From positions 4,641-68,640 of the forward strand of contig JAYURR010000174.1 in the NCBI GenBank assembly GCA_043756605.1: a DNA stretch of 64,000 bases, in the 5' to 3' direction. Shown here one piece after another: positions 18,672-61,378 of this stretch. Under the pieces are notes generated by a model. The model saw only the letters and a list, made by a program, of their open reading frames with translations. It ran no database searches and had not been told where the DNA came from. The position numbers and the translations under genes are program-made. The stretch comes from Chitinophagaceae bacterium. GTDB taxonomy: Bacteria > Bacteroidota > Bacteroidia > Chitinophagales > Chitinophagaceae. Within the stretch, counting starts at the first letter, position 1. Every line of letters begins with the position of its first letter.

Positions 18672-20081
18672 TGATAGCTGCAATATATTTTTAGCGCTGT
18701 CCGTTATTTTAAACCTATCATCAATACGCAGGCCAACCACCCAGATGATTTTTTTATCCATTTCAATAACCCATGTTTTTTCTTTTTGGGTGAGGGATAA
18801 TTTCTGATCAATTAAAAACCGACTTAGTTTTTTCTTCTTTTGCATGCCCAGCGGATAAAAATAATCGCCGGGTTTGCATTTGCGGAGGAGTAAGGGGAAT
18901 TTTATTTCAGATGCATTTACTTGGGCGATTTGGTTTGAGGTTTGTAGTTGGTGGTTGGTGGTTGGGAGCAGTTCAATATTAATTGAACCCTGCTGAAAAT
19001 CAACTTTTATATCATTTTTTTCTATAAAAATATTTTGCGCCTCTATAGTTTTATTTGGCGCAATAATAAGCCAGTTGCGGTTTTTAATGATGCGGTGTGT
19101 GGCTGATGAAATATATTTTCCGGTTTCGCTTTTTAATAAATCAACAACTTCATTTGTTTGATGTGCTGTAAAACCGTAGTCTTTTACAATCTCGTAAAGT
19201 ATTGTGTGCAATGCTTCGGTTTTCTGTAATTTTAAAACAGGGATATGTATTTCGTTGCCTTTTTGCTCCAGTAATTTTTTTTTGGCAAGATGTACAGATT
19301 GCTGGTACAGCGTTTCAATTTCCCGGAAACGTTCAATATTGTTCAGCAAATTATCCTGCACCTGCGGAAACACTTTTTGCAGATCGGGAATGAGTTGGTT
19401 GCGAAAATAATTGCGGGTGTATTTATCGGATGCGTTGGAAGAATCTTCCACAAAATTTAAATTATTTGCTTTTGCAAATGCAGCAATGTCTTCTTTTTTG
19501 GCAAAGAGTAAAGGCCGGATAATATTGCCTTGTTTTGGTAAGATACCATGCAGCCCATTAATGCCGGTGCCTTTAAAGAAATTCATTAAGAGGGTTTCGA
19601 TGTTATCGTTGGCGTGGTGTGCAGTGATAAGAAAATTGGCAATGGGCAATTGGCAATCCGGCTCTGAAGTTTCAATCTCTTTTGCATTTTGCATATTGCC
19701 TATTGCCAATTGCCCATCGCCCTTTGCATATTGCATATTGCCTGTTAACTCTGCAAACCAGTTGTAACGCAATTCCCTGGCGGCAACCTGTATGCTGAGT
19801 TTATTTTCGGTTGCAAATGTTTGTGTGTCGAATTTTTTAACCTGTACTTCAACATCATATTTTTTACCAAGTTCTTTTACAAACGCTTCATCACGTTCGC
19901 TTTCATCTCCACGCAATTGAAAGTTGCAGTGAGCAATGGTAAAATCGTAACCAGCCTGTTTGCAGAGTTCGCAAAGCACTACACTATCTACTCCCCCGCT
20001 TACGGCAAGCAACAGCTTATCTTTTGGTTGAAAAAGATTTTTGTGTTTGATGTATTGCTGAAATTTTTCTAAAAGATTCAT
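18654..20081 (-). CDS. tilS: tRNA(Ile)-lysidine synthetase carrying a repeat-derived insertion
   Basis: AVSGGVDS PP-loop, AARELRY, TAHHANDNIET, YTRNYFR, C-terminal KKKLSRFLID. Confidence 0.96.
   Translation of the reverse strand: MNLLEKFQQYIKHKNLFQPKDKLLLAVSGGVDSVVLCELCKQAGYDFTIAHCNFQLRGDESERDEAFVKELGKKYDVEVQVKKFDTQTFATENKLSIQVAARELRYNWFAELTGNMQYAKGDGQLAIGNMQNAKEIETSEPDCQLPIANFLITAHHANDNIETLLMNFFKGTGINGLHGILPKQGNIIRPLLFAKKEDIAAFAKANNLNFVEDSSNASDKYTRNYFRNQLIPDLQKVFPQVQDNLLNNIERFREIETLYQQSVHLAKKKLLEQKGNEIHIPVLKLQKTEALHTILYEIVKDYGFTAHQTNEVVDLLKSETGKYISSATHRIIKNRNWLIIAPNKTIEAQNIFIEKNDIKVDFQQGSINIELLPTTNHQLQTSNQIAQVNASEIKFPLLLRKCKPGDYFYPLGMQKKKKLSRFLIDQKLSLTQKEKTWVIEMDKKIIWVVGLRIDDRFKITDSAKNILQLSLFSAK
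18929..18965. repeat. Heptamer tract inside the 3' part of tilS
   Basis: Coding strand caaccac-caaccac-caactac-aaacctc-aaaccaa, encoding PTTNHQLQTSNQ. Confidence 0.6.
19634..19742. repeat. Heptamer-arm palindromic element in frame inside tilS
   Basis: ggcaatg/ggcaatt repeats (19634-19657) are inverted relative to attgcct-attgcca-attgccc (19695-19717); two ttgcat(a/t) tandem tracts are also present. Confidence 0.85.
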
Positions 20082-20106
20082 ACCCCTGTCCCCTAAAGGG
20101 GAACTT
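20082..20106. repeat. Solo C/G hairpin arm abutting the tilS start codon
   Basis: acccctgtcccctaaaggggaact; on the tilS strand it reads agttcccctttaggggacagggt-ATG, resembling the DUF559 element right arm. Confidence 0.65.
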
Positions 20107-20228
20107 AGTTAATTAGTGTAAAATAATCTGCCTGCAGTATTCCATTCATTCGCTTCAAAAAAAGTTCAATAGAGTTATACTGTACAAGAGTGCGACGCCA
20201 ATGAAGCTGATTAAAGATTAAAAGCCGG

Positions 20229-20262
20229 GAACCAAAAACTAAAAACCACAAACCTCAAACTA
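20229..20262. repeat. Heptamer arm starting at the TPR gene stop codon
   Basis: Minus strand TAG-tttgagg-tttgtgg-tttttag-tttttgg-tt. Confidence 0.6.
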
Positions 20263-20571
20263 TTCCTCCACATCCTCCAACGCTCCCTGCAGCTCCATCT
20301 TTGTATGATGATCATCTGCTTTTTGTGCCTCCTCTATACCCCGTTTGTATATCCTTATCGCTTTATCGTAATCGCCAACCCGCTCTAATAATTTGCCCAG
20401 GTGATAGTAAGAGCCAATATAAGTTGGCTCCCGCAGCAAAATTTCGTTAAACAGTTTGCGGGCCTGCTCATCATCGCCAATCTTAATGTACTCCAGTGCC
20501 AGCGCATGTTGCAGAAAACTATCCTTGCCCGATGTTTTCATGTACTCCAGTAATTTTTCTATCCTGCTCAT
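20260..20571 (-). CDS. Tetratricopeptide repeat protein
   Basis: DSFLQHALALEY, YIGSYYHLGKLLE TPR pattern, 103 aa. Confidence 0.88.
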   Translation of the reverse strand: MSRIEKLLEYMKTSGKDSFLQHALALEYIKIGDDEQARKLFNEILLREPTYIGSYYHLGKLLERVGDYDKAIRIYKRGIEEAQKADDHHTKMELQGALEDVEE

Positions 20572-20619
20572 TAAACAATATTTTTTTCTGATTTTTTATC
20601 AATTTATCTTTTCAACACT

Positions 20620-20627
20620 TATCTTTG
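20620..20627 (+). promoter_or_regulatory. Bacteroidota housekeeping promoter -7 element upstream of etfB
   Basis: tatctttg matches TAnnTTTG, 48 bp before the ATG at 20676. Confidence 0.55.
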
Positions 20628-20675
20628 CATTAGTTGCATAAACAACTTATTTCCCGATTTTTAAAATTTTACTAC

Positions 20676-21419
20676 ATGAAGATCTTAGTTTGTATCAGTA
20701 AAACCCCCGATACTACCGCAAAAATAGCCTTCGCCGATAACAATACGAAATTCGCTGCAGATGGCGTACAATGGATCATCAACCCGTACGATGAATGGTA
20801 TGCCCTGGTAAGAGCCATTGAGTTGAAGGAAGCCGATGCTGCAACAATAATACATTTGGTTACCGTTGGAGGTGCCGACAGCGACCCAATCATCCGTAAA
20901 GCATTGGCCCTTGGTGGCGATGAATCTTTCCGGGTAAATGCTGATAGTCATGATAGTTTTTACATTGCATCGCAAATTGCAGAAATTGCAAAAAAAGGCA
21001 GCTACGATTTAGTGTTTACCGGTAAAGAAACCATTGATTATAATGGATCTTCTATTGGCGGCATGGTGGCTGAACTGCTTGACCTGCCCTATGTTTCACT
21101 GGCAACTAAATTTACACTGGAAGGAACGGATGCCATTATTAACCGTGAAATTGAAGGTGGAGAAGAAACCAATAAAGTAGCATTACCGCTGGTGGTTAGC
21201 TGCCAAAAGGGAATGGCTGAACAACGAATACCTAATATGAAAGGCATTATGGGTGCCAGAAGCAAACCATTAACTGCTGTTGAGCCGGTTGCGGTTAATG
21301 CGCTGACAAGCGTTGCATCTTTTGAATTGCCACCTGCAAAGGCTGGAGTAAAATTAGTTTCAGCAGATAATCCTGAAGAGTTGGTAAGATTATTACATGA
21401 AGAAGCAAAAGCAATTTAA
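20676..21419 (+). CDS. etfB: Electron transfer flavoprotein beta subunit
   Basis: MKILVCISKTPDT, INPYDE, GKETIDY, RIPNMKGIMGA; start moved to ATG 20676. Confidence 0.95.
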   Translation: MKILVCISKTPDTTAKIAFADNNTKFAADGVQWIINPYDEWYALVRAIELKEADAATIIHLVTVGGADSDPIIRKALALGGDESFRVNADSHDSFYIASQIAEIAKKGSYDLVFTGKETIDYNGSSIGGMVAELLDLPYVSLATKFTLEGTDAIINREIEGGEETNKVALPLVVSCQKGMAEQRIPNMKGIMGARSKPLTAVEPVAVNALTSVASFELPPAKAGVKLVSADNPEELVRLLHEEAKAI

Positions 21420-21881
21420 TGGATAGTTGATAATGGTATAATGGATAATGTTTTAAATTTATAACATCACTCATTACCAAAACTATACATTATGAAAGAG
21501 AATATTTTAAAAGACAAGAGTTTCAATTTTGCGATAAGAATTGTAAATCTTTATAAATTTCTTAAGTAAGAACATGGTGAATATATTTTATCGCAGCAAT
21601 TAATAAGAAGCGGAACATCAATCGGGGCAATAGTTAGAGAAGCTGAACATGCAGAAAGCATTAAAGACTTTGTACATAAATTGAGTATTGGTTTAAAGGA
21701 AGCAAATGAATCGAAGTATTGGCTTGATCTGCTTTTTGCGACAGAGTTCATTACAAAAAAAATGTACGAATCGTTAAACAAGGATTGTGAGGAGCTTTTA
21801 AAATTGCTTATTGCAAGCGTAAAAACGAGTAAGCTTAAAATTAAATAAATTATCAATTATCCATTATTAAATTATCCATTG
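21417..21881. mobile_element. Heptamer-inverted-repeat cassette carrying a four-helix-bundle gene
   Basis: Left arm taatggatagttgataatggtataatggataatg (21417-21450) includes the etfB stop; right arm aattatcaattatccattattaaattatccattg (21848-21881) ends 2 bp before the etfA ATG. Mobility is inferred. Confidence 0.65.
21492..21848 (+). pseudogene. Four-helix-bundle protein (TIGR02436/23S rRNA IVP family) with an in-frame stop
   Basis: Manual translation MKENILKDKSFNFAIRIVNLYKFLK*EHGEYILSQQLIRSGTSIGAIVREAEHAESIKDFVHKLSIGLKEANESKYWLDLL...; TAA at 21567-21569. Confidence 0.88.
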
Positions 21882-21883
21882 TC

Positions 21884-22843
21884 ATGGTTTTAATATTTTT
21901 AGATCTATCAGAAGGCCACATTAAAAAATCATCTTTTGAAGCAGCAAGTTACGGTGCAAAAGTTGCCGAACTTTTAGGTACCACTGCCGATGCCATTGTA
22001 TTGGGCAATGTTGCAGATGATTTAACAACTTTGGGCAACTACGGCATTAAAAAAGTGCATACCGTAAAAAATGATGCACTTGATCATGTAGATGCACAGG
22101 TGTTTACAAAAATAATTGCCGATGCTGCTAAAGCCATTGATGCTAAAGTAATCATCTTCTCCAATAACTTTAATGGCAAAGCCATTGCGCCACGTTTAAG
22201 TGTAAGGCTTAAGGCTGGCCTGGTTTCTGGTGCTGTTGCCCTACCGGATTTGAGCAACGGATTTACGGTTAAGAAAAACGTTTTCAGCGGTAAGGCTTTC
22301 GCCAATATCACGGTGGCAACTGATATTAAGATCATTGCATTAAATCCAAATTCATATACCGTTGTACCAACAACAGCCACTGCAGAAGTTGCCGAATTTA
22401 CAGCAACAGTTGATGCTGCAAAAGTACAGGTAACTGCAACCGATAAAGTAGTTGGCGAAGTTCCATTGAGCGAAGCGGAAATTGTAGTAAGCGGCGGACG
22501 TGGTTTAAAAGGCCCGGAAAACTGGGCATTGGTTACCGACCTTGCAAAATTATTGGGTGCAGCTACGGCCTGCAGCCGCCCGGTTGCTGATAGCGACTGG
22601 AGGCCGCATCACGAACATGTAGGACAAACAGGCCTTGCCATTGCACCAAACTTATACATTGCCATTGGTATTTCTGGCGCCATACAACATCTTGCCGGTG
22701 TAAACCGCAGTAAAGTAATTGTGGTAATTAATAAAGACCCCGAAGCTCCGTTTTTTAAAGCGGCAGATTATGGTATTGTAGGCGATGCTTTTGAAGTGAT
22801 GCCGAAGATTATTGAAGCGGTTAAAAAATTGAAGCAGGCGTAA
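21884..22843 (+). CDS. etfA: Electron transfer flavoprotein alpha subunit
   Basis: VVSGGRG, ACSRPVAD, HVGQTG, YIAIGISGAIQHLAG, AINKD-like VINKD. Confidence 0.96.
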   Translation: MVLIFLDLSEGHIKKSSFEAASYGAKVAELLGTTADAIVLGNVADDLTTLGNYGIKKVHTVKNDALDHVDAQVFTKIIADAAKAIDAKVIIFSNNFNGKAIAPRLSVRLKAGLVSGAVALPDLSNGFTVKKNVFSGKAFANITVATDIKIIALNPNSYTVVPTTATAEVAEFTATVDAAKVQVTATDKVVGEVPLSEAEIVVSGGRGLKGPENWALVTDLAKLLGAATACSRPVADSDWRPHHEHVGQTGLAIAPNLYIAIGISGAIQHLAGVNRSKVIVVINKDPEAPFFKAADYGIVGDAFEVMPKIIEAVKKLKQA

Positions 22844-22862
22844 ACTGATAAAATCTATTCAT

Positions 22863-22893
22863 AAAAAAACCTCCATTCTCTGGAGGTTTTTTT
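22863..22893. terminator. Bidirectional intrinsic terminator
   Basis: aaaaaaacctcca-ttctc-tggaggttttttt between convergent genes. Confidence 0.8.
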
Positions 22894-22916
22894 ATGCCGG
22901 ATATTTTTAATACTTT

Positions 22917-24422
22917 TTAAATTGTATTGGGTGTAAATATTTTTACAACCCCATCATTTTCGCTGCTTACAATCAATAAACTTTTTTTAGTAGGACTGTC
23001 TTTTGCTGGTATAAACAAAACGCCCTCCGGTGCATCGCCACATTTTATCATTTGCAAAAATACCGGTGCCGCAGGGTTACTTATATCATACATGGCCACT
23101 GCATCTACCCTTTCCATACCCACAAATGCAACCATTTTATTGCCCACTTTTCCAATGCAAACACCTTCCGGCTCTACCGATTTATCGTCGCTACGGGTAT
23201 CATCATACACACTCAAAGCAAGGGCTTTTTTATCAAGTTCATTTTTACTATCAAAAACCTGTACGCCTGTATTGCCGTTCCATACACTAAAAGAGCGGGC
23301 ACCAAATGAATACAGGGCATCAAAATCGCCATCGCCATCAGTATCGCCCATGGTATTGGTAACATTCAGGCGGCCCATTTGTGCATCTAATTTTAAAGTG
23401 GCCGCATTGGGAAATAGAGTTAAATCAAGCGATAAAGATTTAACCCTTTTTGCTTCTGCTAAAGCCGTGTACTCTCTTGCATCGCCTTCGTTGGCAGTAA
23501 ACAGATAAGGTATGCCATTGAACTCGTACAACGAAATTGCATCAGGCATGTACATGCCTTTAACCGGCCATTTTGCAGGCGTGCCCACGGCTCCATCCAG
23601 ATCACTTACATCAATAGCATTTTCAGCAGTGTTATAATCTTTAAATCCTAAAGGAAAAATATTGCTTATAGCTTTAGAGGTAAGATCAATTTTTGCAATG
23701 CCGTTGTTTTCCTGCAGGGTAACCCAGGCAGTTTTTGAGTCGGATGAAATGGTTATATACTCAGGCTCAATATCTTTTACAAAATTATTGCCAATACCAA
23801 AAACCCTTAATCCGCCTGCTTTTAAAGCAGCCTGCTGTGATGTAAAAGCAGCAAAATCAATGGTAGTTACCGTATAATTATTATTTACCTCAATAATAGA
23901 AACTGTACCTGCCGGATCGTTGGTATAATCATTACTTGGTTCACCTTCGTTTGCAGTTAATAAATAATTGCCATCATTGCTAAACCTGATCATATCGGGC
24001 AAAGCACCAACCGTAACAACTTTTACTTCGCTGTAAGTATCGGTTTTAAAAACAACTACTTTGCCATTATCCTGCTTATTTAAACCCTCAATAGCTGCAG
24101 CCAGTTTGCCATTGCTTACATCCAAACTGTTAACTGCACCTGCATAGGCAGATAAAGCAATACTATAAACCATTGCCGGAGCAGCCGGATTTTTTATATC
24201 CAACACATCAATTTTATTAGTTGCACTGTTGTTTACCACAAACAAGCGTTGTGTTAAGGGATCGTAAGCAGATATTTCTGCAGCGCCAACACCACCAATG
24301 CCAATACTTCCAATTTCTTTAAAAGTTGAAGGATCTTCGTTAACAAAAAATTCGGGTGTGTCATTTTTTTTACACGACGCCATAATTACAGTGCATACCA
24401 TTAACAGGTTCAATAATTTCAT
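22917..24422 (-). CDS. Choice-of-anchor I family beta-propeller lipoprotein (alkaline-phosphatase-associated)
   Basis: Lipobox MKLLNLLMVCTVIMASC; AAEISAYD, GALPDM, TANEGEP, EPEYI, QENNG, FGARSFS, RSDDKSVEPEG. Confidence 0.82.
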   Translation of the reverse strand: MKLLNLLMVCTVIMASCKKNDTPEFFVNEDPSTFKEIGSIGIGGVGAAEISAYDPLTQRLFVVNNSATNKIDVLDIKNPAAPAMVYSIALSAYAGAVNSLDVSNGKLAAAIEGLNKQDNGKVVVFKTDTYSEVKVVTVGALPDMIRFSNDGNYLLTANEGEPSNDYTNDPAGTVSIIEVNNNYTVTTIDFAAFTSQQAALKAGGLRVFGIGNNFVKDIEPEYITISSDSKTAWVTLQENNGIAKIDLTSKAISNIFPLGFKDYNTAENAIDVSDLDGAVGTPAKWPVKGMYMPDAISLYEFNGIPYLFTANEGDAREYTALAEAKRVKSLSLDLTLFPNAATLKLDAQMGRLNVTNTMGDTDGDGDFDALYSFGARSFSVWNGNTGVQVFDSKNELDKKALALSVYDDTRSDDKSVEPEGVCIGKVGNKMVAFVGMERVDAVAMYDISNPAAPVFLQMIKCGDAPEGVLFIPAKDSPTKKSLLIVSSENDGVVKIFTPNTI

Positions 24423-24626
24423 ATTCAGTAGTTTTATGGCTGTAATTTTCAAAGATTGATGTTATCAATTTGTAACCGGAAGGTTAAGAAAATATTATTT
24501 GCATTCAATTGGTCTTCAGTTGCCGATTTTATGATGATTTTTCGATTGAAAAAAGTAAGCGGTAGAGAAATCATTATTTTTTATATTTGCTGTTTGCTAA
24601 ACGCATGATGACAACCCGGAAAGGAT

Positions 24627-25208
24627 ATGAAAAAAATAGAATTGGAAATAGTGGCTTTATCGCACAGCATTACCCAAACCCATTCGTATGCAGTTGTGCT
24701 GGGCGAGTTAAACGGATTACGCAGGCTGCCGATAGTTATTGGCGGCTTTGAGGCGCAGGCTATTGCTGTAGCTTTGGAACGTATGAGCCCAAGCAGGCCG
24801 CTTACCCACGACCTGATGAAGAATTTTATGATGGCCTTTAATGTAGAACTGCACGAAGTGGTTATAAATGATCTGCAGGAAGGAATTTTTTACAGCAAAC
24901 TGGTTTGCAGCTCAGCAAACGATACGGTTGAAATTGATTCCCGTACATCGGATGCTTTGGCTTTGGCTGTACGTTTTGGCTGCCCTATTTATACTTATGA
25001 TAATATTTTAGAACAGGCCGGAATACTGATGGAAGATGATGGCAAACCAAAATCACCCACCACAGTTACAACCGAAACAGTTGGAGGCGATAATTTAAAA
25101 TCATTATCGCTGGAAGAACTGGAAGGTTTGTTGACCGAAGTGCTGGATCATGAAGATTATATAAGGGCCATTGCTATACGGGATGAGATAAAAAGCAGGA
25201 AGAAGTAA
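24627..25208 (+). CDS. Bifunctional nuclease family protein (DUF151) with C-terminal UVR domain
   Basis: RRLPIVIGGFEAQAIA, RPLTHDL, DSRTSDALALA, EDYIRAIAIRDEI. Confidence 0.9.
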   Translation: MKKIELEIVALSHSITQTHSYAVVLGELNGLRRLPIVIGGFEAQAIAVALERMSPSRPLTHDLMKNFMMAFNVELHEVVINDLQEGIFYSKLVCSSANDTVEIDSRTSDALALAVRFGCPIYTYDNILEQAGILMEDDGKPKSPTTVTTETVGGDNLKSLSLEELEGLLTEVLDHEDYIRAIAIRDEIKSRKK

Positions 25209-25341
25209 TGGATAATTGTTTAATGGATAATGGATAATTTTTCAAATTCGTTGCAGTTTTTCAATAGCAAACTTTAAGATACTTAGCATACATTTCCATT
25301 CTAAAACATTATCCATTATAAATTATCTCATTATCCATTAA
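25206..25341. repeat. Empty TAATGGA-heptamer inverted-repeat element filling the stop-to-start gap
   Basis: taatggataattgtttaatggataatggataatt (25206-25239) ... cattatccattataaattatctcattatccattaa (25307-25341); ispE ATG at 25343. Confidence 0.82.
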
Positions 25342-25342
25342 C

Positions 25343-26164
25343 ATGCTCCGGTTTCCCAATTGCAAAATAAATCTCGGCTTACATATTCTTGATAAAAGAG
25401 AAGATGGGTTTCACAACCTGGAGACTGTTTTTTATCCGGTTGCATTTAAAGATGCACTGGAATTACTTCCAAATACAACTAATACAACTGAAATTGAATT
25501 TACAGGCACAGGCCTGGCTGTTGATGGCAACACAGATGATAATCTTTGCGTAAAAGCATATCATTTAATAAAGAAAGATTTTACACAACTACCTGCAATA
25601 AAAATTCATTTGCATAAAGCCATACCCATGGGAGCCGGACTGGGCGGCGGTTCTGCCGATGCTTCTTTTATGCTGCAAATGTTGAATGATAAATTCAAAT
25701 TAAACCTCTCAACTTCTAAACTCCTAAACTATTCTTTACTGCTCGGCAGCGATTGCCCTTTTTTCATCATCAACAAACCCTGCTTTGCAACAGGCCGTGG
25801 AGAATTGCTGGAAGAAATAAAAGTTGATTTATCTGCTTACAAAATTGTTTTAGTTAATCCCGGCATTCATGTAAATACCCGTTGGGCATTTTCAAATATT
25901 AGTCCTTCCCTGCCCAAAAAATCAGTTAAAGAAATTGTGCTGCAAACTATTGAAACCTGGAAGGCTGAATTAAAAAATGATTTTGAAACGGCAGTTTTTG
26001 CTGCTCATCCGCAGGTAAAAGAAATTAAAGAAACGCTGTATCAACAGGGAGCAATTTATGCTGCTATGAGTGGAAGCGGCAGTACGGTGTTTGGAATTTT
26101 TGAATCAAACGCAGGCGCAGTCTCATTAAAACACAGCAACTATTTTATTAAAACAATAAATTAG
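25343..26164 (+). CDS. ispE: 4-diphosphocytidyl-2-C-methyl-D-erythritol kinase
   Basis: FPNCKINLGL, KAIPMGAGLGGGSADA, GSDCPFF, MSGSGSTVFG. Confidence 0.96.
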   Translation: MLRFPNCKINLGLHILDKREDGFHNLETVFYPVAFKDALELLPNTTNTTEIEFTGTGLAVDGNTDDNLCVKAYHLIKKDFTQLPAIKIHLHKAIPMGAGLGGGSADASFMLQMLNDKFKLNLSTSKLLNYSLLLGSDCPFFIINKPCFATGRGELLEEIKVDLSAYKIVLVNPGIHVNTRWAFSNISPSLPKKSVKEIVLQTIETWKAELKNDFETAVFAAHPQVKEIKETLYQQGAIYAAMSGSGSTVFGIFESNAGAVSLKHSNYFIKTIN

Positions 26165-26360
26165 TATATCTTGCACAAAAATTAATCATCATTAACACGC
26201 TGTTAAACATATCTTCTTTCCTCCGCAGCAATCTCGATTTACTCAATCATCGAGCTTAAAAACCCTTCCTAACCGCTCCGCCAACTGGCGGAAGGAACAG
26301 TACTCTGTGTATTCAACTTTTTAAACCTTTTCAACTTTTTAAAATTCCCAACTTTAAGTT

Positions 26361-27593: not shown

Positions 27594-27594
27594 A

Positions 27595-27629
27595 TAAGGA
27601 AGTCAAACTTTTAAAGCTTGACTTCCTTA
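27595..27629. terminator. Hairpin between convergent rocD and transporter genes
   Basis: taaggaagtcaa / ttgacttcctta 12-bp stem; no long U-tract. Confidence 0.5.
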
Positions 27630-27635
27630 AAAGAA

Positions 27636-28427: not shown

Positions 28428-28517
28428 TTTTTTGGTTATTTACTTGCAAATATTTCTGAGAGCGTAGAAATATTTGCAAGTAAAATTATAAAATGTTTCT
28501 TTTTAAAAGAAACTTAT

Positions 28518-32769: not shown

Positions 32770-32774
32770 GTATT

Positions 32775-33838: not shown

Positions 33839-34127
33839 TCCCACAAAGGCGCAAAGGCACAAAGTGAAGTTGCTGCGCAACTTTGGGCTTGGCACAGAAG
33901 CTCAGAAACACAGAAAAGAAAATCAATTGTATTTATTTGTGCAATCTGTGGCAAAAAAAATTCCGGAGAGAATTAATACTTTGCAGAAGGTAAAAAGATA
34001 CCACAGCTTAATAGGATTTTTTCTGCTACACAGAAATTTTTAGACACAAACACTAATCACACAAAGATATTTTGAAGATAAATTAATAGTTCTTTGTGTG
34101 CTTTGTGACTTAGTACCTTACTGGGAA
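33839..34127. repeat. Cluster of nested nonamer-arm palindromes
   Basis: tcccacaaaggcgcaaaggcacaaag (33839-33864); cacacaaag/ctttgtgtg pair (34058-34100); atttgtgcaatctgtggc half-arm (33935-33952). Confidence 0.6.
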
Positions 34128-44930: not shown

Positions 44931-44981
44931 TTCCCTAAACCGGTGAGTCACCCTCTCGGGGTGACGCACCGGTTTAGGGAA
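44931..44981. repeat. REP-like 23-bp-arm palindrome overlapping a stop codon
   Basis: ttccctaaaccggtgagtcaccc / gggtgacgcaccggtttagggaa (one mismatch). Confidence 0.8.
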
Positions 44982-46220: not shown

Positions 46221-47003
46221 ATGCATGTTCCAACAATGGCAGAAATGATGGCGAAGGGTGAAAGCCCCGAAATTTTATTTTGGGTAGGCTGCGCCGGAAG
46301 TTTTGACCAGCGGGCACAAAAAATAACCAAAGCATTTGTAACCATTTTGGATAAGGTTGGTATCAACTACGCCATCTTGGGTAAAGAAGAAATGTGTACC
46401 GGCGATCCGGCCCGCCGTGCCGGCAACGAATTTATGTTTCAGATGATGGCTTACCAGAATATTCAGATTTTGAATGGTTATGGTATTAAGAAAATTGTAA
46501 CGGCCTGTCCGCATTGTTTTAATACATTGGGTAATGAATATCCTGAATTGGGCGGCACTTACGAAGTAATTCATCATGCAACTTTTTTACAGCAATTAAT
46601 TGACGAAGGCAAAATAAAAATGACCGAAGGCGGTACTTTTAAAGGCAAAAAAATTACTTACCACGATAGTTGTTATTTGGGCCGTGCCAATAATATTTAC
46701 GAAGCACCACGCAAAGTGCTGGAAGCCTTGGATGTTTCTTTAGTTGAGATGAAACGCTGCCGCAGCAACGGTTTGTGCTGTGGTGCCGGCGGTGCACAAA
46801 TGTTTAAAGAGGAAGAAAAAGGTGAAATCCGCATTAATATAGATCGCAGTAACGAAGCCATTGCAACCGGTGCCAGCGTTATTGCAGCGGCATGCCCGTT
46901 TTGTAATACTATGATGACAGATGGTGTAAAAAACAGTAATAAGGAAGATGAGGTGCAGGTGTTGGATATTGCGGAGTTGGTTGCTGCATCAATGGCAAAC
47001 TAA
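46221..47003 (+). CDS. (Fe-S)-binding CCG-domain protein (GlpC/HdrB-like)
   Basis: WVGCAG, CTGDP, ACPHC, YHDSCYLGR, LCCGAGG, ACPFC. Confidence 0.9.
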   Translation: MHVPTMAEMMAKGESPEILFWVGCAGSFDQRAQKITKAFVTILDKVGINYAILGKEEMCTGDPARRAGNEFMFQMMAYQNIQILNGYGIKKIVTACPHCFNTLGNEYPELGGTYEVIHHATFLQQLIDEGKIKMTEGGTFKGKKITYHDSCYLGRANNIYEAPRKVLEALDVSLVEMKRCRSNGLCCGAGGAQMFKEEEKGEIRINIDRSNEAIATGASVIAAACPFCNTMMTDGVKNSNKEDEVQVLDIAELVAASMAN

Positions 47004-47034
47004 TGGATAATTTAGTAATGGATAATTGATAATG
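47001..47034. repeat. Solo TAATGGA-heptamer arm beginning with the upstream stop codon
   Basis: taatggataatttagtaatggataattgataatg is 31/34 identical to the reverse complement of 21848-21881. Confidence 0.85.
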
Positions 47035-47091
47035 TTTTATGTTTCAGACACTTCATGTTTGATTGCAGATACGTCATCTCAAATACAAAAA

Positions 47092-47610: not shown

Positions 47611-47723
47611 ATTATTTCTTTAAAACAAATAAGCTGTCAGCCTGAGGCACTCATAAATATATTTTAAGCTCTTTGGAAATTACAATGATTTTTTATTTCT
47701 CAGCTTCGCTGTGAAATAAGTTA

Positions 47724-47786
47724 GCCACGAATTACACGAATTTTCACGAATTGAATACAGTTGCTTTAATTTGTGTAATTCGTGGC
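47724..47786. repeat. Nonamer-arm extragenic palindrome
   Basis: gccacgaattacacgaatt / aatttgtgtaattcgtggc (one mismatch). Confidence 0.8.
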
Positions 47787-47978
47787 AAAAAATAATTATT
47801 TCGAAGAAATAACGTTTGTGCCTGATTGGCTAATAGCTTTTCAGCGCAGCTGAAAAAAAAGATATTTTTTCTTGTTATTTCCAAAAAGCTTAAGTTTTTC
47901 TTTTATCCGCAGTATGCAGAGCATGAGTGGCTCACCCTTACAGACTTTTTAAATAGAACGATAATGACTTACAACTAT

Positions 47979-53086: not shown

Positions 53087-53190
53087 TTTCAGTCATTTTT
53101 TTCTGTTAACCATATATTTACGCCGCTTACATAATAAGGGTATTGCTAATTGAGGCAACTTTTATATTTTTATCGGATAAATATTAATGT

Positions 53191-55422: not shown

Positions 55423-55445
55423 GATGATTTTTTAGAAATTTTGTT

Positions 55446-55476
55446 AACCGTCTCACTTGGGTGAGGCGGTTTTTTT
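55446..55476 (+). terminator. Intrinsic terminator after the M13 peptidase
   Basis: accgtctcac-ttgg-gtgaggcggt followed by T7. Confidence 0.8.
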
Positions 55477-55520
55477 GTGGAGGGATGAGCTCTTTCACAA
55501 AAAAAATATTTCACAAAAAA

Positions 55521-55570
55521 TTTGCGCAACCAGATAATTGCATTTATATTTGCAACCAGATAGTTGCAAA
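55521..55570 (+). promoter_or_regulatory. Bacteroidota promoter overlapped by two palindromic ArsR-type operators
   Basis: -33 tttg (55521-24) and -7 tatatttg (55545-52), 20-bp spacing; gcaaccagataattgc (55526-41) and tttgcaaccagatagttgcaaa (55549-70). Confidence 0.75.
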
Positions 55571-55578
55571 ATTATATT

Positions 55579-55905
55579 ATGGAAATAAGAAGAGATATTT
55601 TTCAGGCGATTGCCGACCCTACCCGCCGGGCAATTATTGTGCTGATTGCCATGCAGGCTATGACGCCGAATGCACTTGCCGAACATTTTCATACAAGCCG
55701 GCAGGCAGTATCTAAACATATAAAAATACTTGCGGAATGTGCGTTGGTAAAACAAGAGGTTTCGGGCAGAGAAATTTATTATACGCTTCAAATAGAAAAA
55801 ATAAAAGAAATAGATAAATGGATTGAGCAGTTCCGCAAAATTTGGGAAACACGTTTCAATCAACTCGACCAAGTATTAGCAACAATTAAAAAACAAAAAA
55901 AATGA
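55579..55905 (+). CDS. ArsR/SmtB family transcriptional regulator
   Basis: [34 protein letters not shown]. Confidence 0.92.
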
Positions 55906-56393
55906 AAAACGATTTGCTATTTGATTTTACAGTTGACAAATCAAAAAAAACAGTCTTTATTAACAGGGAGTTTGATGCGGAGCTTTCGCTGGTATGGGAT
56001 GCTTTTACCAAACCCGAAATACTTGACCAATGGTGGGCACCTAAACCCTGGGCATCAAAAACGAAAATTATGAATTTTGAAGTTGGCGGACGAAGATTTT
56101 ATGCTATGGTAAGCCCGGAAGGAATGGAACGCTGGTCTGTTCAGAAATATACTTCTATCAGCCCCAAAACCAATTTTAAATATTTAAATGCCTTTGCTGA
56201 TGCAGATGAAAACCCTGAATTGCCGGGTTCTGAATGGGATCTGAATTTCAGCGAAAATAACGGAACAACAAAAGTGAGCGTTACTATTTATAATGAATCG
56301 CTTGAACGCTTGGAAAAGATGATTGAAATGGGTTTTAAGGAAGGATTTACTATGACACTGAAAAGCCTGGAAGAATTATTGGCAACCAGATAG
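55902..56393 (+). CDS. SRPBCC (Aha1/START-like) domain protein
   Basis: [32 protein letters not shown]; ATGA overlap. Confidence 0.9.
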
Positions 56394-56480
56394 CTATTGG
56401 GATTATCGCAAAGTTGCTGGTCCATCCCATTACTTATCGTCATAAAAAGGCAAATAATCAAACTGTAATTTAATACTTTT

Positions 56481-56909
56481 ATGACAGTACAAAATCAAAT
56501 CAAACAGTATATCAGTAGCCAACCTGAACCAAAATGTAGTGACATGCAAGCCTTACATCAGCACATACTTAAATTGTTGCCATCATGTAAATTATGGTTT
56601 CTGAATGGTAAAGACAGTGAAAATAAAACTGTTTCTAACCCCAATATAGGATATGGATTTTACACAATGAAATATGCTGATGGAAAAACCAGGGAATTTT
56701 ATCAAATTGGTTTGAGTGCAAACACAACCGGAATCTCTTTGTATATCATGGGTATTAAGGATAAGAAATACTTAGCCCAAACCTATGAAAAAAAAATAGG
56801 CAAAGCAAGTGTTACGGGGTATTGCATTAAATTTAAAACGCTAAAAGATATAAACATGGATATACTTGAAGCGGCAATACGGTGTGGGGTTGAGGCTACG
56901 TCCGGATAG
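56481..56909 (+). CDS. DUF1801 (YdhG-like) protein
   Basis: IGYG..KYADG, GISLY, GKASVTGYCIKFKTLKDI. Confidence 0.8.
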   Translation: MTVQNQIKQYISSQPEPKCSDMQALHQHILKLLPSCKLWFLNGKDSENKTVSNPNIGYGFYTMKYADGKTREFYQIGLSANTTGISLYIMGIKDKKYLAQTYEKKIGKASVTGYCIKFKTLKDINMDILEAAIRCGVEATSG

Positions 56910-56954
56910 TTACCGGGAGAAAAGATGAGGTTACCGGGATTCAAAAGCATGATC

Positions 56955-57353
56955 ATGAAAAAACAATTCCTTAATAAGCTGCTTGCCATTTCAATAACAA
57001 CAGTTTCTTTATTGGTTTTATTTATACCATATAGCCTGGTTTATTATGCAGATAATAAAGTTGAAGGCTGGAGGTCAGCTTATATTTTTGAAGACCTTAT
57101 TTTAACACTCGTTTACACGCCCTTTTTTGCTTGCTGGTTTGCCTATATGTCCTTCAAAAACAAACTGCTCAAAACTATCTCCCTCGTTATTTTGGTAGCA
57201 ATTTCAACGTTATATTTCGTTATTTCCTTTCTAAGCTTGTTGATGACTGTGCAGGATTTTTTGCCATATTTTGGGATATATTTATCTTTTCTGTTACTCC
57301 CTCTATTGCTAATTTATTTGATTAATGAGCGTAGTTTACAAAGAAGCAAATAG
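56955..57353 (+). CDS. Hypothetical membrane protein
   Basis: Four hydrophobic segments; start uncertain (56925 or 56955). Confidence 0.55.
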   Translation: MKKQFLNKLLAISITTVSLLVLFIPYSLVYYADNKVEGWRSAYIFEDLILTLVYTPFFACWFAYMSFKNKLLKTISLVILVAISTLYFVISFLSLLMTVQDFLPYFGIYLSFLLLPLLLIYLINERSLQRSK

Positions 57354-57411
57354 ATATACTTCTTTGGCCAGGGTGTAAAAAGTGGCAAATGGATTTTAAA
57401 CATACAGCTAT

Positions 57412-57876
57412 CTACTTCTCCTCAGTATTCACCTTCTTAACAAAACTGTAATTGTTATTGCTGAAATTAAAATGAAAAATGCGGTTGTAATCTTTATTAA
57501 AATGTTCTTCACTATCATCAACATCCAGAATATTGCTAATAACATTAAAGGCTTCGGTGCGATAGCAAAGCAACACATTCTGGCGGCCGGTTTCATCCTT
57601 ATTTATATCGGTAAACATTTTACTAAGTTGCGTTTTATCAAACTCGCTCTTAACACCTTTTGTACCACGTATGGTACTGCGGCAGCGGTTATAGGGATCA
57701 GATGTTTTTACATCTATCGATTGAAAAAGAATATGATCAAAATAAACATCTTTAAAATATTTATCCAGGTATAGCCCAAAATCAAGCCCTTCTTTTGATA
57801 AGTGCAGGTAATCCGGTTTGTTCCGGTCTTCAATAAGCATTTTTCCGTGGCGTACTATGTAAAGGTTATTGGTCAT
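57412..57876 (-). CDS. Small histidine-phosphatase-superfamily protein (SixA-like)
   Basis: LYIVRHG, LSKEG, RCRST motifs. Confidence 0.6.
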   Translation of the reverse strand: MTNNLYIVRHGKMLIEDRNKPDYLHLSKEGLDFGLYLDKYFKDVYFDHILFQSIDVKTSDPYNRCRSTIRGTKGVKSEFDKTQLSKMFTDINKDETGRQNVLLCYRTEAFNVISNILDVDDSEEHFNKDYNRIFHFNFSNNNYSFVKKVNTEEK

Positions 57877-58079
57877 GATAAGAATACTGGGTTAGTTCTT
57901 CAGGTTTCGTAAACACGATTATTGAAAAGTGAAGATGTCAGGCGGCAAATTTACGCTTTTAAAGACAGAATGTACCGATTACATTATAATTGACTTAATG
58001 AGGATAGATAAGTTGCTGCCATACTGTCACGGTTTGCCTGCATTTAACTATCTTTGCCACCTAAAAAAAATGCAGGTTA

Positions 58080-59588
58080 ATGTTGAATGTAGCTACCAAT
58101 AAAAAACATGATGAAGCAAGGCAGGGAGAAGCATTTGCCCTGTTTGCCAACGATACAAACCCATACAAAAAATACTTTTACATTGAAAGTTATGGCTGCG
58201 CCATGAATTTTGCCGATAGCGAAGTGGTGGCTTCTATATTAATGGATAATGGTTTTGGTGCCACCAATAATTTTAAAGAAGCCGATCTTATTTTTATAAA
58301 CACCTGTTCTATCCGTGAAAAGGCAGAAACCACTGTACGCAAACGTTTAACAGAATTTCGCCAGATAAAAAAACAAAAACCAGGCATGCTGGTGGGTGTG
58401 CTGGGCTGTATGGCCGAGCGATTGAAAGCACAGTTTTTAGAAGAAGAAAAATTAGTTGATTTAGTAATTGGCCCCGATGCATACCGCAGTTTACCTGCAC
58501 TAATTGAAGAAGCAGAAACCGGCCAGAAAGCAGTAAATGTTTTATTAAGCCGTGATGAAACCTATGCAGATATTGCACCCATTCGCCTTAACAGCAATGG
58601 TGTAAATGCGTTTGTAAGCATCATGCGTGGCTGCAATAATATGTGTTCGTTTTGTGTGGTGCCATTTACCCGTGGCCGGGAACGAAGCCGTGATGCCGCA
58701 TCTATCATCAACGAATGTAAAACCTTATTTGAGCAGGGATACAGAGAAGTAACTTTGCTGGGGCAGAATGTGGATAGTTACCATTACACAGCCCCCCCGG
58801 CCATCCAAGGGGGGAGTTTGGAACACCCTGCAAATTCAAATAGCACTGTAAATTCGCAGGGTGCTTTTTCTCCCCCCTTGGGGGGCGGGGGGGCTGCTGT
58901 TACTTTTGCCATACTTTTAGAGCAGGTCGCACTAATCTCTCCCCTCCTCCGTGTACGCTTCTCCACTTCGCATCCAAAAGATATTACCGATGATGTGTTG
59001 CACACAATTGTGAAATACGAAAACATCTGCAATTATATTCACCTGCCGGTACAAAGTGGCAGCACACGTGTGTTGCAAATGATGAACCGCACCTACAGCC
59101 GTGAGTGGTACATTGCCAAAGTAAACCGCATACGGGAGTTGATACCGCATTGTGGCATTTCAACTGATATGATAACCGGTTTTTGTACCGAAACAGAGGA
59201 AGATCACCAGCAATCTTTAAGCCTGATGGAATACTGCAAGTACGATCTGGCTTATATGTACTTTTACAGCGAACGGCCGGGAACCCTTGCTGCCCGTAGG
59301 TTTAAAGATGATGTACCGCTTGATGTTAAAAAACGCAGACTACAGGAAATGGTTGACCTCTATCGTGGCCACTCATTACTTGCCATGCAAAAGGAAGTGG
59401 GCAAAACCCGTAAAGTATTAATTGAAGGTCCATCTAAAAAAAGTGAAAACGATTTGTATGGCAGAACCGATCAGAATAAAGTAGTGGTATTTGAAAAAGG
59501 AAATTTAAAGGTGGGGGAATATGTAGAAGTACAAATTACATCTTGCACAGCAGGAACATTGATAGGCAAAACCCCCTCCGCCCCCTGA
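58080..59588 (+). CDS. miaB: tRNA-2-methylthio-N6-dimethylallyladenosine synthase carrying an internal insertion
   Basis: [29 protein letters not shown] radical-SAM motif, C-terminal TRAM domain. Confidence 0.97.
58789..58896. repeat. 108-bp palindromic element in frame inside miaB
   Basis: cagcccccccggccatccaaggggggag ... ctccccccttggggggcgggggggctg, with an inner caccctgc/gcagggtg pair. Confidence 0.88.
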
Positions 59589-60058
59589 AGGGGGAACTTT
59601 GTACTCTGCTGATGCAAAGATTTTTTATTTTGTTTCGAAAGTCGGAATGAATATGAAAGAAAATATGTTTTACGGAGCCGGGCATTTGATTTTTGAAAAG
59701 GCGAAGAAGTTGAGAAACAATGTTACGCCAACTGAAATGATTTTATGGGGAAGATTGAAAGAATATTTTCCCAATGTAAAATTCAGAAGGCAACATCCAA
59801 TTTCATTTTATATTGTTGACATATATTGTCATTCTAAAAAACTGGTTATTGAAATTGATGGAAGCATACATGATTTGGAAGAAATAAAAATAAAAGATGT
59901 ATTAAGACAAAAAGAACTGGAGGCACTGGGATTAAAAATCATCAGGTTTACCACAAAAGAAATTACAAACGAATTGGAAGCAGTTTTACAAACAATTGAA
60001 AAACACTTAAAATAATCATACTCCAAAGTTCCCCCTTCAGGGGGCGGAGGGGGTTTTG
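59567..60058. mobile_element. 492-bp element with perfect 35-bp terminal inverted repeats enclosing a DUF559 nuclease gene
   Basis: caaaaccccctccgccccctgaagggggaactttg (59567-59601) is the exact reverse complement of 60024-60058. Mobility is inferred. Confidence 0.78.
59653..60015 (+). CDS. DUF559 / Vsr-like endonuclease domain protein
   Basis: AKKLRNNVTPTEMILW, KFRRQHPI, VDIYC, LVIEIDGSIH, IRF. Confidence 0.92.
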   Translation: MKENMFYGAGHLIFEKAKKLRNNVTPTEMILWGRLKEYFPNVKFRRQHPISFYIVDIYCHSKKLVIEIDGSIHDLEEIKIKDVLRQKELEALGLKIIRFTTKEITNELEAVLQTIEKHLK

Positions 60059-60060
60059 TT

Positions 60061-61284
60061 ATGGAACTACAAACAATAAAAAACCGTTTCGGCATTATCG
60101 GCAATTCATCGGGCCTTAACCATGCATTAAATATTGCCGTGCAGGTTGCAAATACCGATCTCAGCGTACTTATCAATGGCGAGAGTGGCGTGGGTAAAGA
60201 AGTTTTCTCACAAATCATTCATGCATTAAGTGCACGTAAACACAATCCATTTATTGCGGTAAACTGCGGTGCCATTCCCGAAGGCACTATTGATTCGGAA
60301 TTATTTGGCCACGAGAAAGGATCTTTTACCGGTGCAGTTGACAGTCGTAAAGGTTATTTTGAAACCGTTAACGGCGGTACTATTTTTTTAGATGAAATTG
60401 GAGAATTACCACTGGGTACACAGGCACGTTTGTTACGGGTGCTGGAAGCCGGCGAATACATACGTGTGGGCAGCAGCAAAGTGCAAAAAACAGATGTACG
60501 TGTTATTGCCGCTACCAACAAAGAGCTGATTGAATATACCCAGACAAATCGTTTTAGAGAAGACTTATATTACCGCTTAAACACAGTGCCCATAAGGGTT
60601 CCGGCATTGCGAGACAGAAAAGAAGATATTTATTTATTGTTCCGCAAGTTTGTAACCGATTTTTCTGATCGTTACAAAGGCAACCCGGTACAATTAGATG
60701 ATGGCGCAAAAGCTGTGTTAATTAACTATCCGTGGCCCGGTAATGTAAGGGAATTGAAGAATATTGCAGAGCAGATATCGGTACTTAGCCAGGATAAAAT
60801 GATCAACACAAATACCATGCAGCGTTTTTTACCCGATCATAATTATTCACGCTTGCCGGTACTGGCTGGCGGCGCAGGCTCGGTAAGCCAGAGCGAATTT
60901 GCAAACGAAAGGGACATTTTGTACAAGCTTTTTTTCGACATGAAAAAAGATGTAAACGAACTTAAGAAAATGTTTTTTGATCTTTTACAAAACCCCAACA
61001 TTGCACAGCATGCTCCTGTTTATAACAATCAGGCATTTGCAGAGCTAAATAACAATGCCCCGGCAAATAATTCATCGGCACCCGTTTTTTTACCGCATAA
61101 TAATGATACGATTGATCACCACGAAGATGTGGAAGAATCTTTAAGCATAGTTGATAAAGAAAAAGAACTCATCATCAAAGCATTAAAAAAACACAAAGGC
61201 AAACGTAAAGATGCATCGCTTGATTTAGGGATTAGTGAGCGTACTTTGTACCGTAAATTAAAAGAGTATGATATTGAAGAGTAA
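60061..61284 (+). CDS. Sigma-54-interaction AAA+ / Fis-family regulator lacking a receiver domain
   Basis: GESGVGKE, SELFGHEKGSFTGA, FLDEIGE, WPGNVREL, C-terminal LGISERTLYRKL. Confidence 0.92.
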   Translation: MELQTIKNRFGIIGNSSGLNHALNIAVQVANTDLSVLINGESGVGKEVFSQIIHALSARKHNPFIAVNCGAIPEGTIDSELFGHEKGSFTGAVDSRKGYFETVNGGTIFLDEIGELPLGTQARLLRVLEAGEYIRVGSSKVQKTDVRVIAATNKELIEYTQTNRFREDLYYRLNTVPIRVPALRDRKEDIYLLFRKFVTDFSDRYKGNPVQLDDGAKAVLINYPWPGNVRELKNIAEQISVLSQDKMINTNTMQRFLPDHNYSRLPVLAGGAGSVSQSEFANERDILYKLFFDMKKDVNELKKMFFDLLQNPNIAQHAPVYNNQAFAELNNNAPANNSSAPVFLPHNNDTIDHHEDVEESLSIVDKEKELIIKALKKHKGKRKDASLDLGISERTLYRKLKEYDIEE

Positions 61285-61287
61285 AGT

Positions 61288-61378
61288 AATTGGCAATGGG
61301 CAATGGGCAATGGGTAATGGGCAACAGCCAATGGGCAAAAATATACTGCTCATTGCTTGTTGCATATTGCTTATTGCC
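61288..61378. repeat. GGCAATG-heptamer inverted-repeat element overlapping the lptE-like 5' end
   Basis: aattggcaatgggcaatgggcaatgggtaatgggcaa (61288-61324) ... cattgcttgttgcatattgcttattgcc (61351-61378). Confidence 0.82.

Follow-up and report, generated by a model that had tools for sequence, protein, structure and literature searches.

Hairpin-armed elements of at least two arm/cargo families at gene junctions and within reading frames of a Chitinophagaceae genome

A 64,000-nucleotide (nt) stretch of DNA from a Chitinophagaceae bacterium (assembly GCA_043756605.1, contig JAYURR010000174.1, positions 4,641 to 68,640), here called the window, carries short palindromic elements at gene junctions and within reading frames. 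These elements fall into at least two arm/cargo families; we speak of two and not one because each cargo family has its own arm type. We consider it on balance probable that they represent two kinds of small, hairpin-armed selfish cassettes together with their decay products, which insert at junctions, spare the operons that receive them and are looped out of transcripts by processing of the RNase III type. The first kind would be defined by inverted arms of tandem heptamers (TAATGGA, GGCAAT[TG]) and, in its full form, by a PF05635/TIGR02436 four-helix-bundle (4HB) gene carried in the loop; the second would have C/G double-hairpin arms and, in its full form, a DUF559 gene. An earlier note on this DNA had proposed one shared system, a claim that has to be given up in view of at least two unrelated arm/cargo families and of possible terminators at convergent gene ends.

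The window belongs to a Ferruginibacter-like genome recovered from a sediment metagenome; its G+C content is ~39%, and a Pfam scan of ~50 of its open reading frames (ORFs) identified ordinary housekeeping genes. The closest relatives of its MiaB (95% amino acid identity) and TilS (81%) proteins belong to Ferruginibacter-like Chitinophagaceae metagenome-assembled genomes, and sediment metagenomes contain the window sequence almost in full. Synteny around both element-bearing regions is kept in 60-80 Chitinophagaceae genomes, which made a site-by-site comparison possible; L-numbers (L001 etc.) denote comparison loci or genomes, and X-numbers metagenomes or metatranscriptomes. Searches of the whole window against Rfam at gathering thresholds, and of positions 19900-20700 at E <= 1, returned no family, and the window contains no rRNA.

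Four heptamer families (TAATGGA, GGCAAT[TG], GGTTGGT/GGTTTGA and CACAAAG/CACAGAA) and three families with units of ~9 nt were confirmed by direct reading of the sequence, as were the C/G arms, all of them where the earlier note had placed them (Table 1). The ~9-nt families are CACGAATTN (47721-47789), GCAGATTNN (6593-6671) and ATCYGTGNA (6672-6706, 33924-33958 and 47758-47792); these units are real but too degenerate for the threshold of a strict period scan, in which period-9 arrays were not detected. The TAATGGA copies resemble each other past the heptamers and into unique sequence (repeat family D5). C/G arms have the form C5-N4-C5-T[GA]AA-G5. Gapless stems with a loop of at most 150 nt and a score of at least 14 number 8 in the window, against 0.27 expected from 30 dinucleotide shuffles (~30-fold), and three score at least 18, against none in the shuffles; fold z-scores of the palindromes range from -3.3 to -12.7. 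The excess of stems is real; three of the seven listed stems (22860, 28439 and 44931) look like ordinary hairpins.

Table 1. Armed elements, repeat families and cargo genes of the window (positions are those of the window)
Feature	Positions	Strand	Remarks
TAATGGA family	21417-21460 with 21838-21891; 25206-25340; 47001-47035	+	
GGCAAT[TG] family	19634-19746 (-) and 61288-61379 (+)		24 nt common to both at 96% identity
GGTTGGT/GGTTTGA family	18929-18968 and 20234-20262	-	
CACAAAG/CACAGAA family	33843-34108		
Palindrome (32-nt arms) of ~9-nt GCAGATTNN units, then ATCYGTGNA array	6593..6706	.	starts 2 nt after stop 6588-6590; fold z = -12.7; outside the range covered by the earlier note
Direct heptamer array (ACCAACC-type on coding strand)	18929..18968	-	tilS 3' half; encodes ..PTTNHQLQTSNQ..
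GGCAAT[TG] heptamer palindrome	19634..19746	-	in frame, TilS PP-loop domain; encodes GNMQYAKGDGQLAIGNMQ...CQLPIAN; fold z = -4.7
Solo C/G right-type arm (GTTCCCCTTTAGGGGACAGGGGT on minus strand)	20082..20110	-	abuts tilS ATG (20081); matches right arms abutting ATG in L259, L267
Short heptamer array	20234..20262	-	starts on stop codon of TPR gene (20260-20571, minus)
Left arm, loaded heptamer cassette (TAATGGA)	21417..21460	+	first three bases are the etfB TAA stop
4HB gene, pseudogene	21492..21848	+	PF05635/TIGR02436; in-frame TAA at codon 26
Right arm, loaded heptamer cassette (ATTATCCATT units)	21838..21891	+	ends at etfA ATG (21884)
ORF-less TAATGGA palindrome	25206..25340	+	from TAA stop of BFN-domain gene to 2 nt before ispE-like kinase ATG (25343); fold z = -3.3
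CACAAAG/CACAGAA composite with inverted partner (CTTTGTG) and GTGCAATCTGTGGC unit	33843..34108	.	between two minus-strand genes; by-eye reading
Solo left TAATGGA arm	47001..47035	+	starts on TAA of CCG-domain gene; includes probable ATG (47032) of next ORF
Palindrome of ~9-nt CACGAATTN units	47721..47789	.	between convergent genes; fold z = -8.2
C/G double-hairpin palindrome	58789..58896	+	in frame, MiaB radical-SAM domain; fold z = -8.2
Left C/G arm, DUF559 cassette	59567..59640	+	miaB TGA stop (59586-59588) in hairpin loop
DUF559 gene (Vsr-like PD-(D/E)XK), intact	59653..60015	+	
Right C/G arm, DUF559 cassette	59985..60058	+	ends 2 nt before sigma-54 activator ATG (60061)
GGCAAT[TG] palindrome	61288..61379	+	starts 3 nt after sigma-54 activator gene stop; fold z = -6.3

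Each kind is represented in the window by one loaded cassette. The 4HB gene between etfB and etfA matches PF05635 (E 1.5e-26), TIGR02436 (E 1.2e-28) and PDB entry 2RLD (E 1e-42); its codon 26 is intact in L161. The whole cassette folds, in both the minimum free energy and the centroid structure, with the arms, here delimited as 21407-21460 and 21838-21891, as an AU-rich closing stem of ~36 bp (z = -2.1). The DUF559 gene between miaB and the sigma-54 activator gene (sig54) matches the full profile of PF04480 at E 3.3e-29 and PDB entry 3HRL, an 'endonuclease-like protein', at E 2.4e-11, and this cargo is predicted to be nuclease-like by fold. Here the arms supply a closing stem of 37 bp (z = -8.1). 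Thus both genes that the earlier note described as enclosed are indeed flanked by arms, although the 4HB copy is a pseudogene. We have not assigned either cargo to the defence genes, PADLOC having returned weak and partial matches only.

The arm family tracks the cargo family well beyond the window. A scan for relatives of the 4HB gene gave 80 loci, 77 of them scorable for arms, and in 58 of the 77 inverted arrays flank the ORF with a score above every shuffle. Arm complementarity is 18.2 within a locus, 13.2 between loci and 8.6 after shuffling; in 14 of the 77 cases no right arm pairs better with a left arm than the one from the same locus, where chance predicts about 1 of 77. Some 50 of the loci represent a single orthologous copy, that at etfB-etfA. 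The ~24 others with scorable arms share the design but use lineage-specific heptamers, in Chlorobi, Bacteroidales, Campylobacterota, Clostridiales, Acidobacteria and others; the design was also found in Cyanobacteria, Spirochaetes and Chloroflexi, and TAACTGA forms the arms of one 4HB cassette from Chitinophagaceae (L186). Independent 4HB cassettes mostly share the orientation of both neighbours, and only a few to ~30 nt part them from the preceding stop and the following start. Six finished plasmid records carry the design (Nostoc punctiforme PCC 73102, N. flagelliforme, Anabaena cylindrica, Planktothrix, Treponema and Chlorohelix, the last enrichment-derived and the other five from cultured strains), and in N. 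punctiforme PCC 73102 the arms are four copies of CAATTCG in perfect match. As a separate observation, the plasmid cassettes L307 (Anabaena cylindrica), L309 (Planktothrix agardhii) and L310 (Ca. Chlorohelix) lie inside defence operons, where they separate cas2 from cas1, DISARM drmD from BREX pglX, and a helicase gene from an N6-methylase gene.

A similar association holds for the second kind. C/G arms accompany ~45 of 62 DUF559 loci, among which are several junctions other than that of miaB, genomes with several copies and loci in Emticicia. The same arm sequence of 26-36 nt recurs with homologous DUF559 cargo at several unrelated junctions, and CALRVV01, JANNYY01 and OY970254.1 each hold the gene and its arms at more than one junction. 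In the source metagenomes, read depth on the arms, including both arms of the window's DUF559 cassette, reaches 20-60 times the level around them, and many contigs diverge at the arm edges. Loaded, ORF-less and solo-arm states were observed for both kinds of element, and loaded copies are far fewer than ORF-less arms.

Placement of the arms relative to codons is precise. The C/G arm pattern was searched in 2.0 Mb of related sequence, in counts that include orthologous junctions, so that independent events are fewer. Only 28% of the matches lie in coding sequence (CDS), although CDS makes up 85% of the searched DNA. Left arms that follow a co-directional gene number 19, and every one begins between -20 and +10 nt from the stop codon of that gene, 14 of them at 0-5 nt; among 16 right arms, 12 stop 0-10 nt short of a start codon. 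In the window itself, a gap of 0-3 nt separates right arms from the ATGs at 21884, 25343, 60061 and, on the minus strand, 20081, and each of the TAA stops at 21417, 25206 and 47001 is also the opening TAA of a TAATGGA unit. The earlier note's observation that arms repeatedly begin on stop codons and end at start codons is upheld, and their placement at these codons is far tighter than would be expected of intergenic background. Part of the pattern is accounted for by the TAA built into the heptamer: since the 7-nt tandem unit runs through all three frames, TAATGGA terminates any ORF that enters it. Two features are left unaccounted for, namely that the stop is always in the first unit and that C/G arms begin 0-5 nt after the stop in a 26-nt spacer.

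The GGCAAT[TG] and C/G arms, on the other hand, are free of stop codons on both strands, whereas TAATGGA carries TAA. Among period-7 arrays in general, 26% of those in CDS are stop-free on both strands, as against 5% of those in intergenic DNA. Host reading frames remain open across the in-frame copies in tilS, miaB and lptE. The insert at 19634-19746 splits the PP-loop domain of TilS in the Pfam match. The second tilS site, 18929-18968, consists of direct repeats only, without an inverted partner or a fold; the homologous loop varies among orthologs, with larger inserts in L089 and L094/95. At the end of miaB the TGA stop lies within the loop of a CCCCC-TGAA-GGGGG hairpin, and the left arm of the DUF559 cassette therefore encodes the MiaB tail TPSAP. 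The LptE signal peptide takes its hydrophobic core from the right arm of the palindrome at 61288-61379; as read from the sequence, LptE probably starts at ATG 61331, giving MGKNILLIACCILLIALFNFATC, with the left arm as 5' leader and, therefore, the right arm alone coding. The same family occupies the sig54-lptE junction in L002, L003, L006, L007, L010 and L025. Arms thus encode new protein loops, the altered C-terminus of MiaB and a signal-peptide core, much as the earlier note had it; its list of copies within CDS stands for tilS, miaB and lptE, with the reservations that the second tilS site forms no hairpin and that the left arm at lptE is probably leader.

The earlier note had named three outcomes that would refute it, namely no presence/absence polymorphism, no arm-cargo association and no junction enrichment beyond AT-rich intergenic background, and the data contradict each of them. 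Polymorphism is abundant at orthologous junctions and loops in the 60-80 genomes, whose sites may be empty, filled, replaced or decayed. The MiaB loop (QNVDSY...TFA) has at most 12 amino acids in 42 of 80 orthologs and at least 20 in 17; long loops are mostly translated C/G palindromes (PP..QGG...PPLGGGG), and some derive from heptamers, including the GGCAAT family in L032. The loop in the TilS PP-loop domain ranges from 9 to 63 amino acids among 81 orthologs and contains several heptamer families, with GGCAAT[TG] in several orthologs. In 11 genomes the etfB-etfA junction is empty, consisting of 26-29 nt with a conserved AAACGAATT motif; filled junctions reach 568 nt, and their contents include 4HB cassettes, palindromes of other heptamers or of the C/G type, elements nested in one another and a solo right TAATGGA arm. 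At the BFN-ispE junction most of ~57 orthologous loci have 9-241 nt, with an outlier of 1101 nt (L129), and ~15 carry the TAATGGA family. The sig54-lptE and miaB-sig54 junctions span 60-1340 and ~20-1500 nt among relatives. At miaB-sig54, DUF559 with the same arms was found in four genomes of the first set and later at more than 15 further loci, and close relatives have decayed or solo arms, including solo right arms in L002 and L004. The source metagenomes show the same variation: an X5 contig has 29 nt encoding an 'empty' MiaB loop in place of 58786-58901, an X3 contig skips 61286-61387, and further contigs join miaB straight to the next ATG. Nesting was observed as well, with a GC-rich hairpin within the right TAATGGA arm of L104 (BFN-ispE) and several C/G elements in one another in L090 (etfB-etfA).

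Sporadic occupation of miaB-sig54 and etfB-etfA across many species would also be expected if spread were homing-like only, proceeding by homologous recombination through conserved flanks, possibly triggered by DUF559 itself in the manner of the free-standing homing endonuclease genes of T4, without occupation of new sites and with ORF-less and solo forms as deletion products. Vsr-like nuclease folds occur in homing endonucleases. At miaB-sig54 the window carries DUF559, and L001, with 95% MiaB identity, carries different cargo; moreover, the ancestral spacer is replaced, not interrupted, at filled sites. However, DUF559 with its arms is found at several non-miaB junctions, and at more than one in the three genomes named above, ORF-less arms far outnumber loaded copies, the in-frame copies in protein loops could not have arisen by homing into junctions, and the 4HB protein lacks a nuclease fold. 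We therefore regard spread by homing alone as quite unlikely.

Several observations weigh against insertion of selfish cassettes. No target-site duplication is readable at any filled/empty pair (MiaB loop, etfB-etfA, miaB-sig54), and the ancestral spacer or loop is not retained intact at filled sites, where events resemble replacement, or insertion with deletion. As the earlier note had reported, no transposase or integrase domain was found by Pfam among the ~50 ORFs of the window that were scanned; nor was a RAYT-type (Y1 transposase) gene. DNA identity of the 4HB copies at etfB-etfA correlates with identity of their flanks (r = 0.68), and this copy appears to owe its presence mainly to vertical descent, with the conservation of a functional gene, and not to a recent jump. 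Its 98% protein identity to L094/95 is explained by a neighbourhood that evolves slowly, TilS evolving fast, and recent horizontal homing of this cassette was rejected because identity follows the flanks. In light of the missing target duplication and this correlation, the active mobility proposed in the earlier note can at most be inferred. The palindromes at 47721-47789 and 6593-6671, between convergent genes, could be ordinary terminators. The miaB-sig54 junction also takes cassettes that lack arms, such as MNT/HEPN pairs, and junction hot spots therefore exist independently of arms. Finally, the comparison genomes are mostly metagenome-assembled.

Arm-less fillings of miaB-sig54 were seen in L001, L003, L020, L026-L028, L031, L033, L042, L046, L058 and L061. 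They comprise nucleotidyltransferase/HEPN (DUF86-like) pairs, a larger nucleotidyltransferase, a small lipoprotein and a small membrane protein, each fitting snugly between stop and start, which suggests that this junction is a general cassette hot spot.

The origin of the window and of most comparison loci in metagenome assemblies, whose graphs are tangled by repeats, raises the question of whether the elements reflect chance, low-complexity AT-rich spacers or assembly artefacts. This appears extremely improbable. The stems far exceed those of shuffled sequence, host frames stay open across the in-frame copies, and isolate genomes and complete long-read records show this architecture too, among them N. 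punctiforme PCC 73102, Anabaena cylindrica PCC 7122, the Lacibacter sp. MH-610 chromosome and Emticicia isolates.

The inheritance of the etfB-etfA copy with its flanks, the lack of target duplication and transposase, and the terminator-like palindromes at convergent gene ends would all fit a different explanation, in which the arms are host-serving RNA modules that arose at their present sites and grew there through heptamer slippage and fold-back template switching, with no transposition and with the small genes as ordinary residents. Such modules could insulate cistrons from one another, terminate transcription, stabilise mRNA or be bound by a regulator that reads heptamers. Heptamer number differs between relatives, Coxiella strains included, as slippage predicts, and direct TAACTGA repeats abutting start codons have been interpreted as translational regulators (PMC4679880). 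We nevertheless think a host-serving role unlikely. The same 26-36 nt arm recurs with DUF559 at unrelated junctions, in several copies per genome; arms in general are extremely multi-copy and have many different flanks. TAATGGA copies remain similar beyond their heptamers, a regulatory role is hard to see for one family lying in frame in unrelated proteins, and the loaded, ORF-less and solo series resembles degeneration rather than maintenance.

If the elements are indeed two kinds of selfish cassette, their history may be pictured as follows. Insertion or replacement at junctions would be rare and followed mostly by vertical descent. Heptamer number would shift by slippage, and the arms would be kept complementary by selection for pairing or by conversion. 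In decay the ORF would be lost first and the arms afterwards, leading from loaded to ORF-less to solo forms. Mobility at the DNA level would require some enzyme, for which the DUF559 nuclease is a candidate in the second kind, and the 4HB protein may be an arm-binding accessory in the first. Families free of stop codons lie in frame in tolerant TilS and MiaB loops, and one supplies the LptE signal-peptide core. Within an operon transcript the arms would pair into a stem of 30-37 bp that loops out the cargo, and RNase III, by analogy with the intervening sequences (IVSs) of 23S rRNA, would cut this stem and leave the flanking cistrons intact; predicted stems of more than 30 bp are compatible with such excision. 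Transcription of a related cassette was found in rumen metatranscriptomes, in contigs assembled from RNA runs. At L232 1467/1907, in the rumen metatranscriptomes X21-X23 and in a rumen Prevotellaceae population, a variant is seen in which the left heptamer arm is joined directly to the downstream ATG. We rejected spliced RNA as the source of this joined form, which is a DNA variant, a solo-left-arm allele of the same junction.

The closest known relative, absent from the earlier note, is the ORF-bearing IVS of 23S rRNA. In the Coxiella IVS a terminal inverted-repeat stem of 28 bp encloses an S23p (PF05635) ORF in its loop; GACAGAT heptamers, two or three in tandem depending on the strain, lie at the 5' end of the IVS, and RNase III cuts within the stem (PMC4990558). 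ORF-bearing IVSs of Leptospira, Coxiella, Xanthomonas and Brucella share with the 4HB cassette of the window their S23p/PF05635 cargo, its position in the loop of a terminal-repeat stem, terminal tandem heptamers, sense orientation in the host transcript, an ORF that is often decaying and the lack of any known mobility enzyme. They lie in a 23S rRNA helix (helix 9, 25 or 45), whereas the window elements lie in protein operons (etfB-etfA, BFN-ispE) and in CDS, with arms that carry or touch stop and start codons. Judged by gene and layout, the loaded heptamer cassette is the same object at a different host site.

Other repeats offer partial parallels. Rickettsia palindromic elements (RPEs), reportedly described by Ogata et al. 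in 2000, are short palindromes that lack a transposase, occur in intergenic DNA and also lie in frame within conserved protein genes, to whose products they add peptide segments; the in-frame palindromes of TilS, MiaB and LptE are alike in this last respect. RPEs are, however, fixed families of ~100-150 bp confined to Rickettsia and lack the heptamer arrays, cargo-bearing form and stop/start placement of the window elements, whose arms contain no RPE consensus. REP/REPIN sequences are extragenic hairpins paired into larger hairpins, highly multi-copy and located at gene ends, with RAYT as their Y1 transposase. Each C/G arm is likewise a small hairpin, and two inverted arms form one larger hairpin, but the window has no RAYT, the cargo is DUF559, copies lie also in CDS and no GTAG/CGTC tags were seen. 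Free-standing homing endonuclease genes and integron cassettes are, like the present cassettes, small promoter-less ORFs between conserved genes that leave host genes unbroken; unlike either, the window elements have numerous ORF-less copies, also in CDS. The attC sites of integrons, one per cassette on the 3' side of the ORF, are hairpin-forming imperfect palindromes, and in other genomes the miaB-sig54 junction can take toxin-antitoxin pairs. Unlike integron cassettes, the window elements have arms on both sides of the ORF and occur singly, not in arrays, with no integrase in the window. Of the traits of classical miniature inverted-repeat transposable elements, inverted termini are present, and a target-site duplication is not readable at filled/empty pairs, where the ancestral spacer has been replaced and not split. 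Tandem 7-nt repeats (cyanobacterial STRR, and TAACTGA of Beggiatoaceae, Cyanobacteria and Bacteroidetes) occur at junctions, patchily across phyla, and the TAACTGA repeats often end 1 nt before a start codon or overlap the upstream stop, for which a translational role has been proposed (PMC4679880). These are direct repeats, for which that paper reports neither an inverted partner nor a 4HB link, while the window arms are inverted and accompany a 4HB gene. Literature searches for a link of PF05635/TIGR02436 genes with heptamer repeats found nothing beyond the Coxiella IVS paper (PMC4990558), and those for a link of DUF559 with C/G hairpins or palindromes found none.

A bolder and rather doubtful extension is that 4HB (S23p/Avd-like) genes and inverted heptamer arrays form one ancient, cross-phylum class of element, of which the 23S IVS, STRR and the TAACTGA repeats of Beggiatoaceae would be local forms. 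A 4HB oligomer might then read the arrays and aid copying or arm matching, perhaps together with a reverse transcriptase, as Avd does in diversity-generating retroelements; DUF559 with C/G hairpins would be a second, nuclease-driven class, and the two together a steady source of protein loops, termini and signal peptides. More immediately, a small gene with matched hairpin arms may be the common anatomy behind the origin of the 23S IVS, STRR, TAACTGA of Beggiatoaceae and palindromes of the Rickettsia type. The cassettes place two very common protein families that lack an assigned function, the TIGR02436 4HB proteins and DUF559, in a concrete setting. They would illustrate how selfish DNA persists inside essential operons and enzymes without breaking them, creating loops, a C-terminus and a signal-peptide core. 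In practical terms, arms lead to mis-called starts and stops, add spurious N-terminal extensions to predicted proteins and break contigs in metagenome assemblies, and they mark junctions tolerant of inserted cassettes.

A few further features of the window were noted. A sequence of ~60 nt between tilS and the TPR gene (20160-20217; minus strand ..GGCGTCGCACTCTTGTACAGTATAAC..) reaches a depth of 650-1160x, against ~25x, in four sediment metagenomes; many contigs diverge at its edges, and it has no Rfam match. A similar motif, a hairpin followed by CACTCTTGTAC, occurs in spacers of L107, L110, L126, L137 and L152. Plain, near-perfect hairpins of 16-23 bp without repeat units lie between genes at 22860-22896, 28439-28484 and 44931-44981; these look like ordinary terminators outside the element families. 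Between the BFN-domain gene and etfA lies a 511-amino-acid 'choice-of-anchor I' gene (22917-24452, minus strand), which is confined to the window, L083, L087 and L146, the neighbouring genes being adjacent in other genomes. An ORF of 3648 amino acids on the minus strand (6765-17711) contains 16 tandem copies of a 267-nt (89-amino-acid) unit, with 63-80% identity and repeats at 12424-16703; its product is probably a giant surface or adhesin-like protein.

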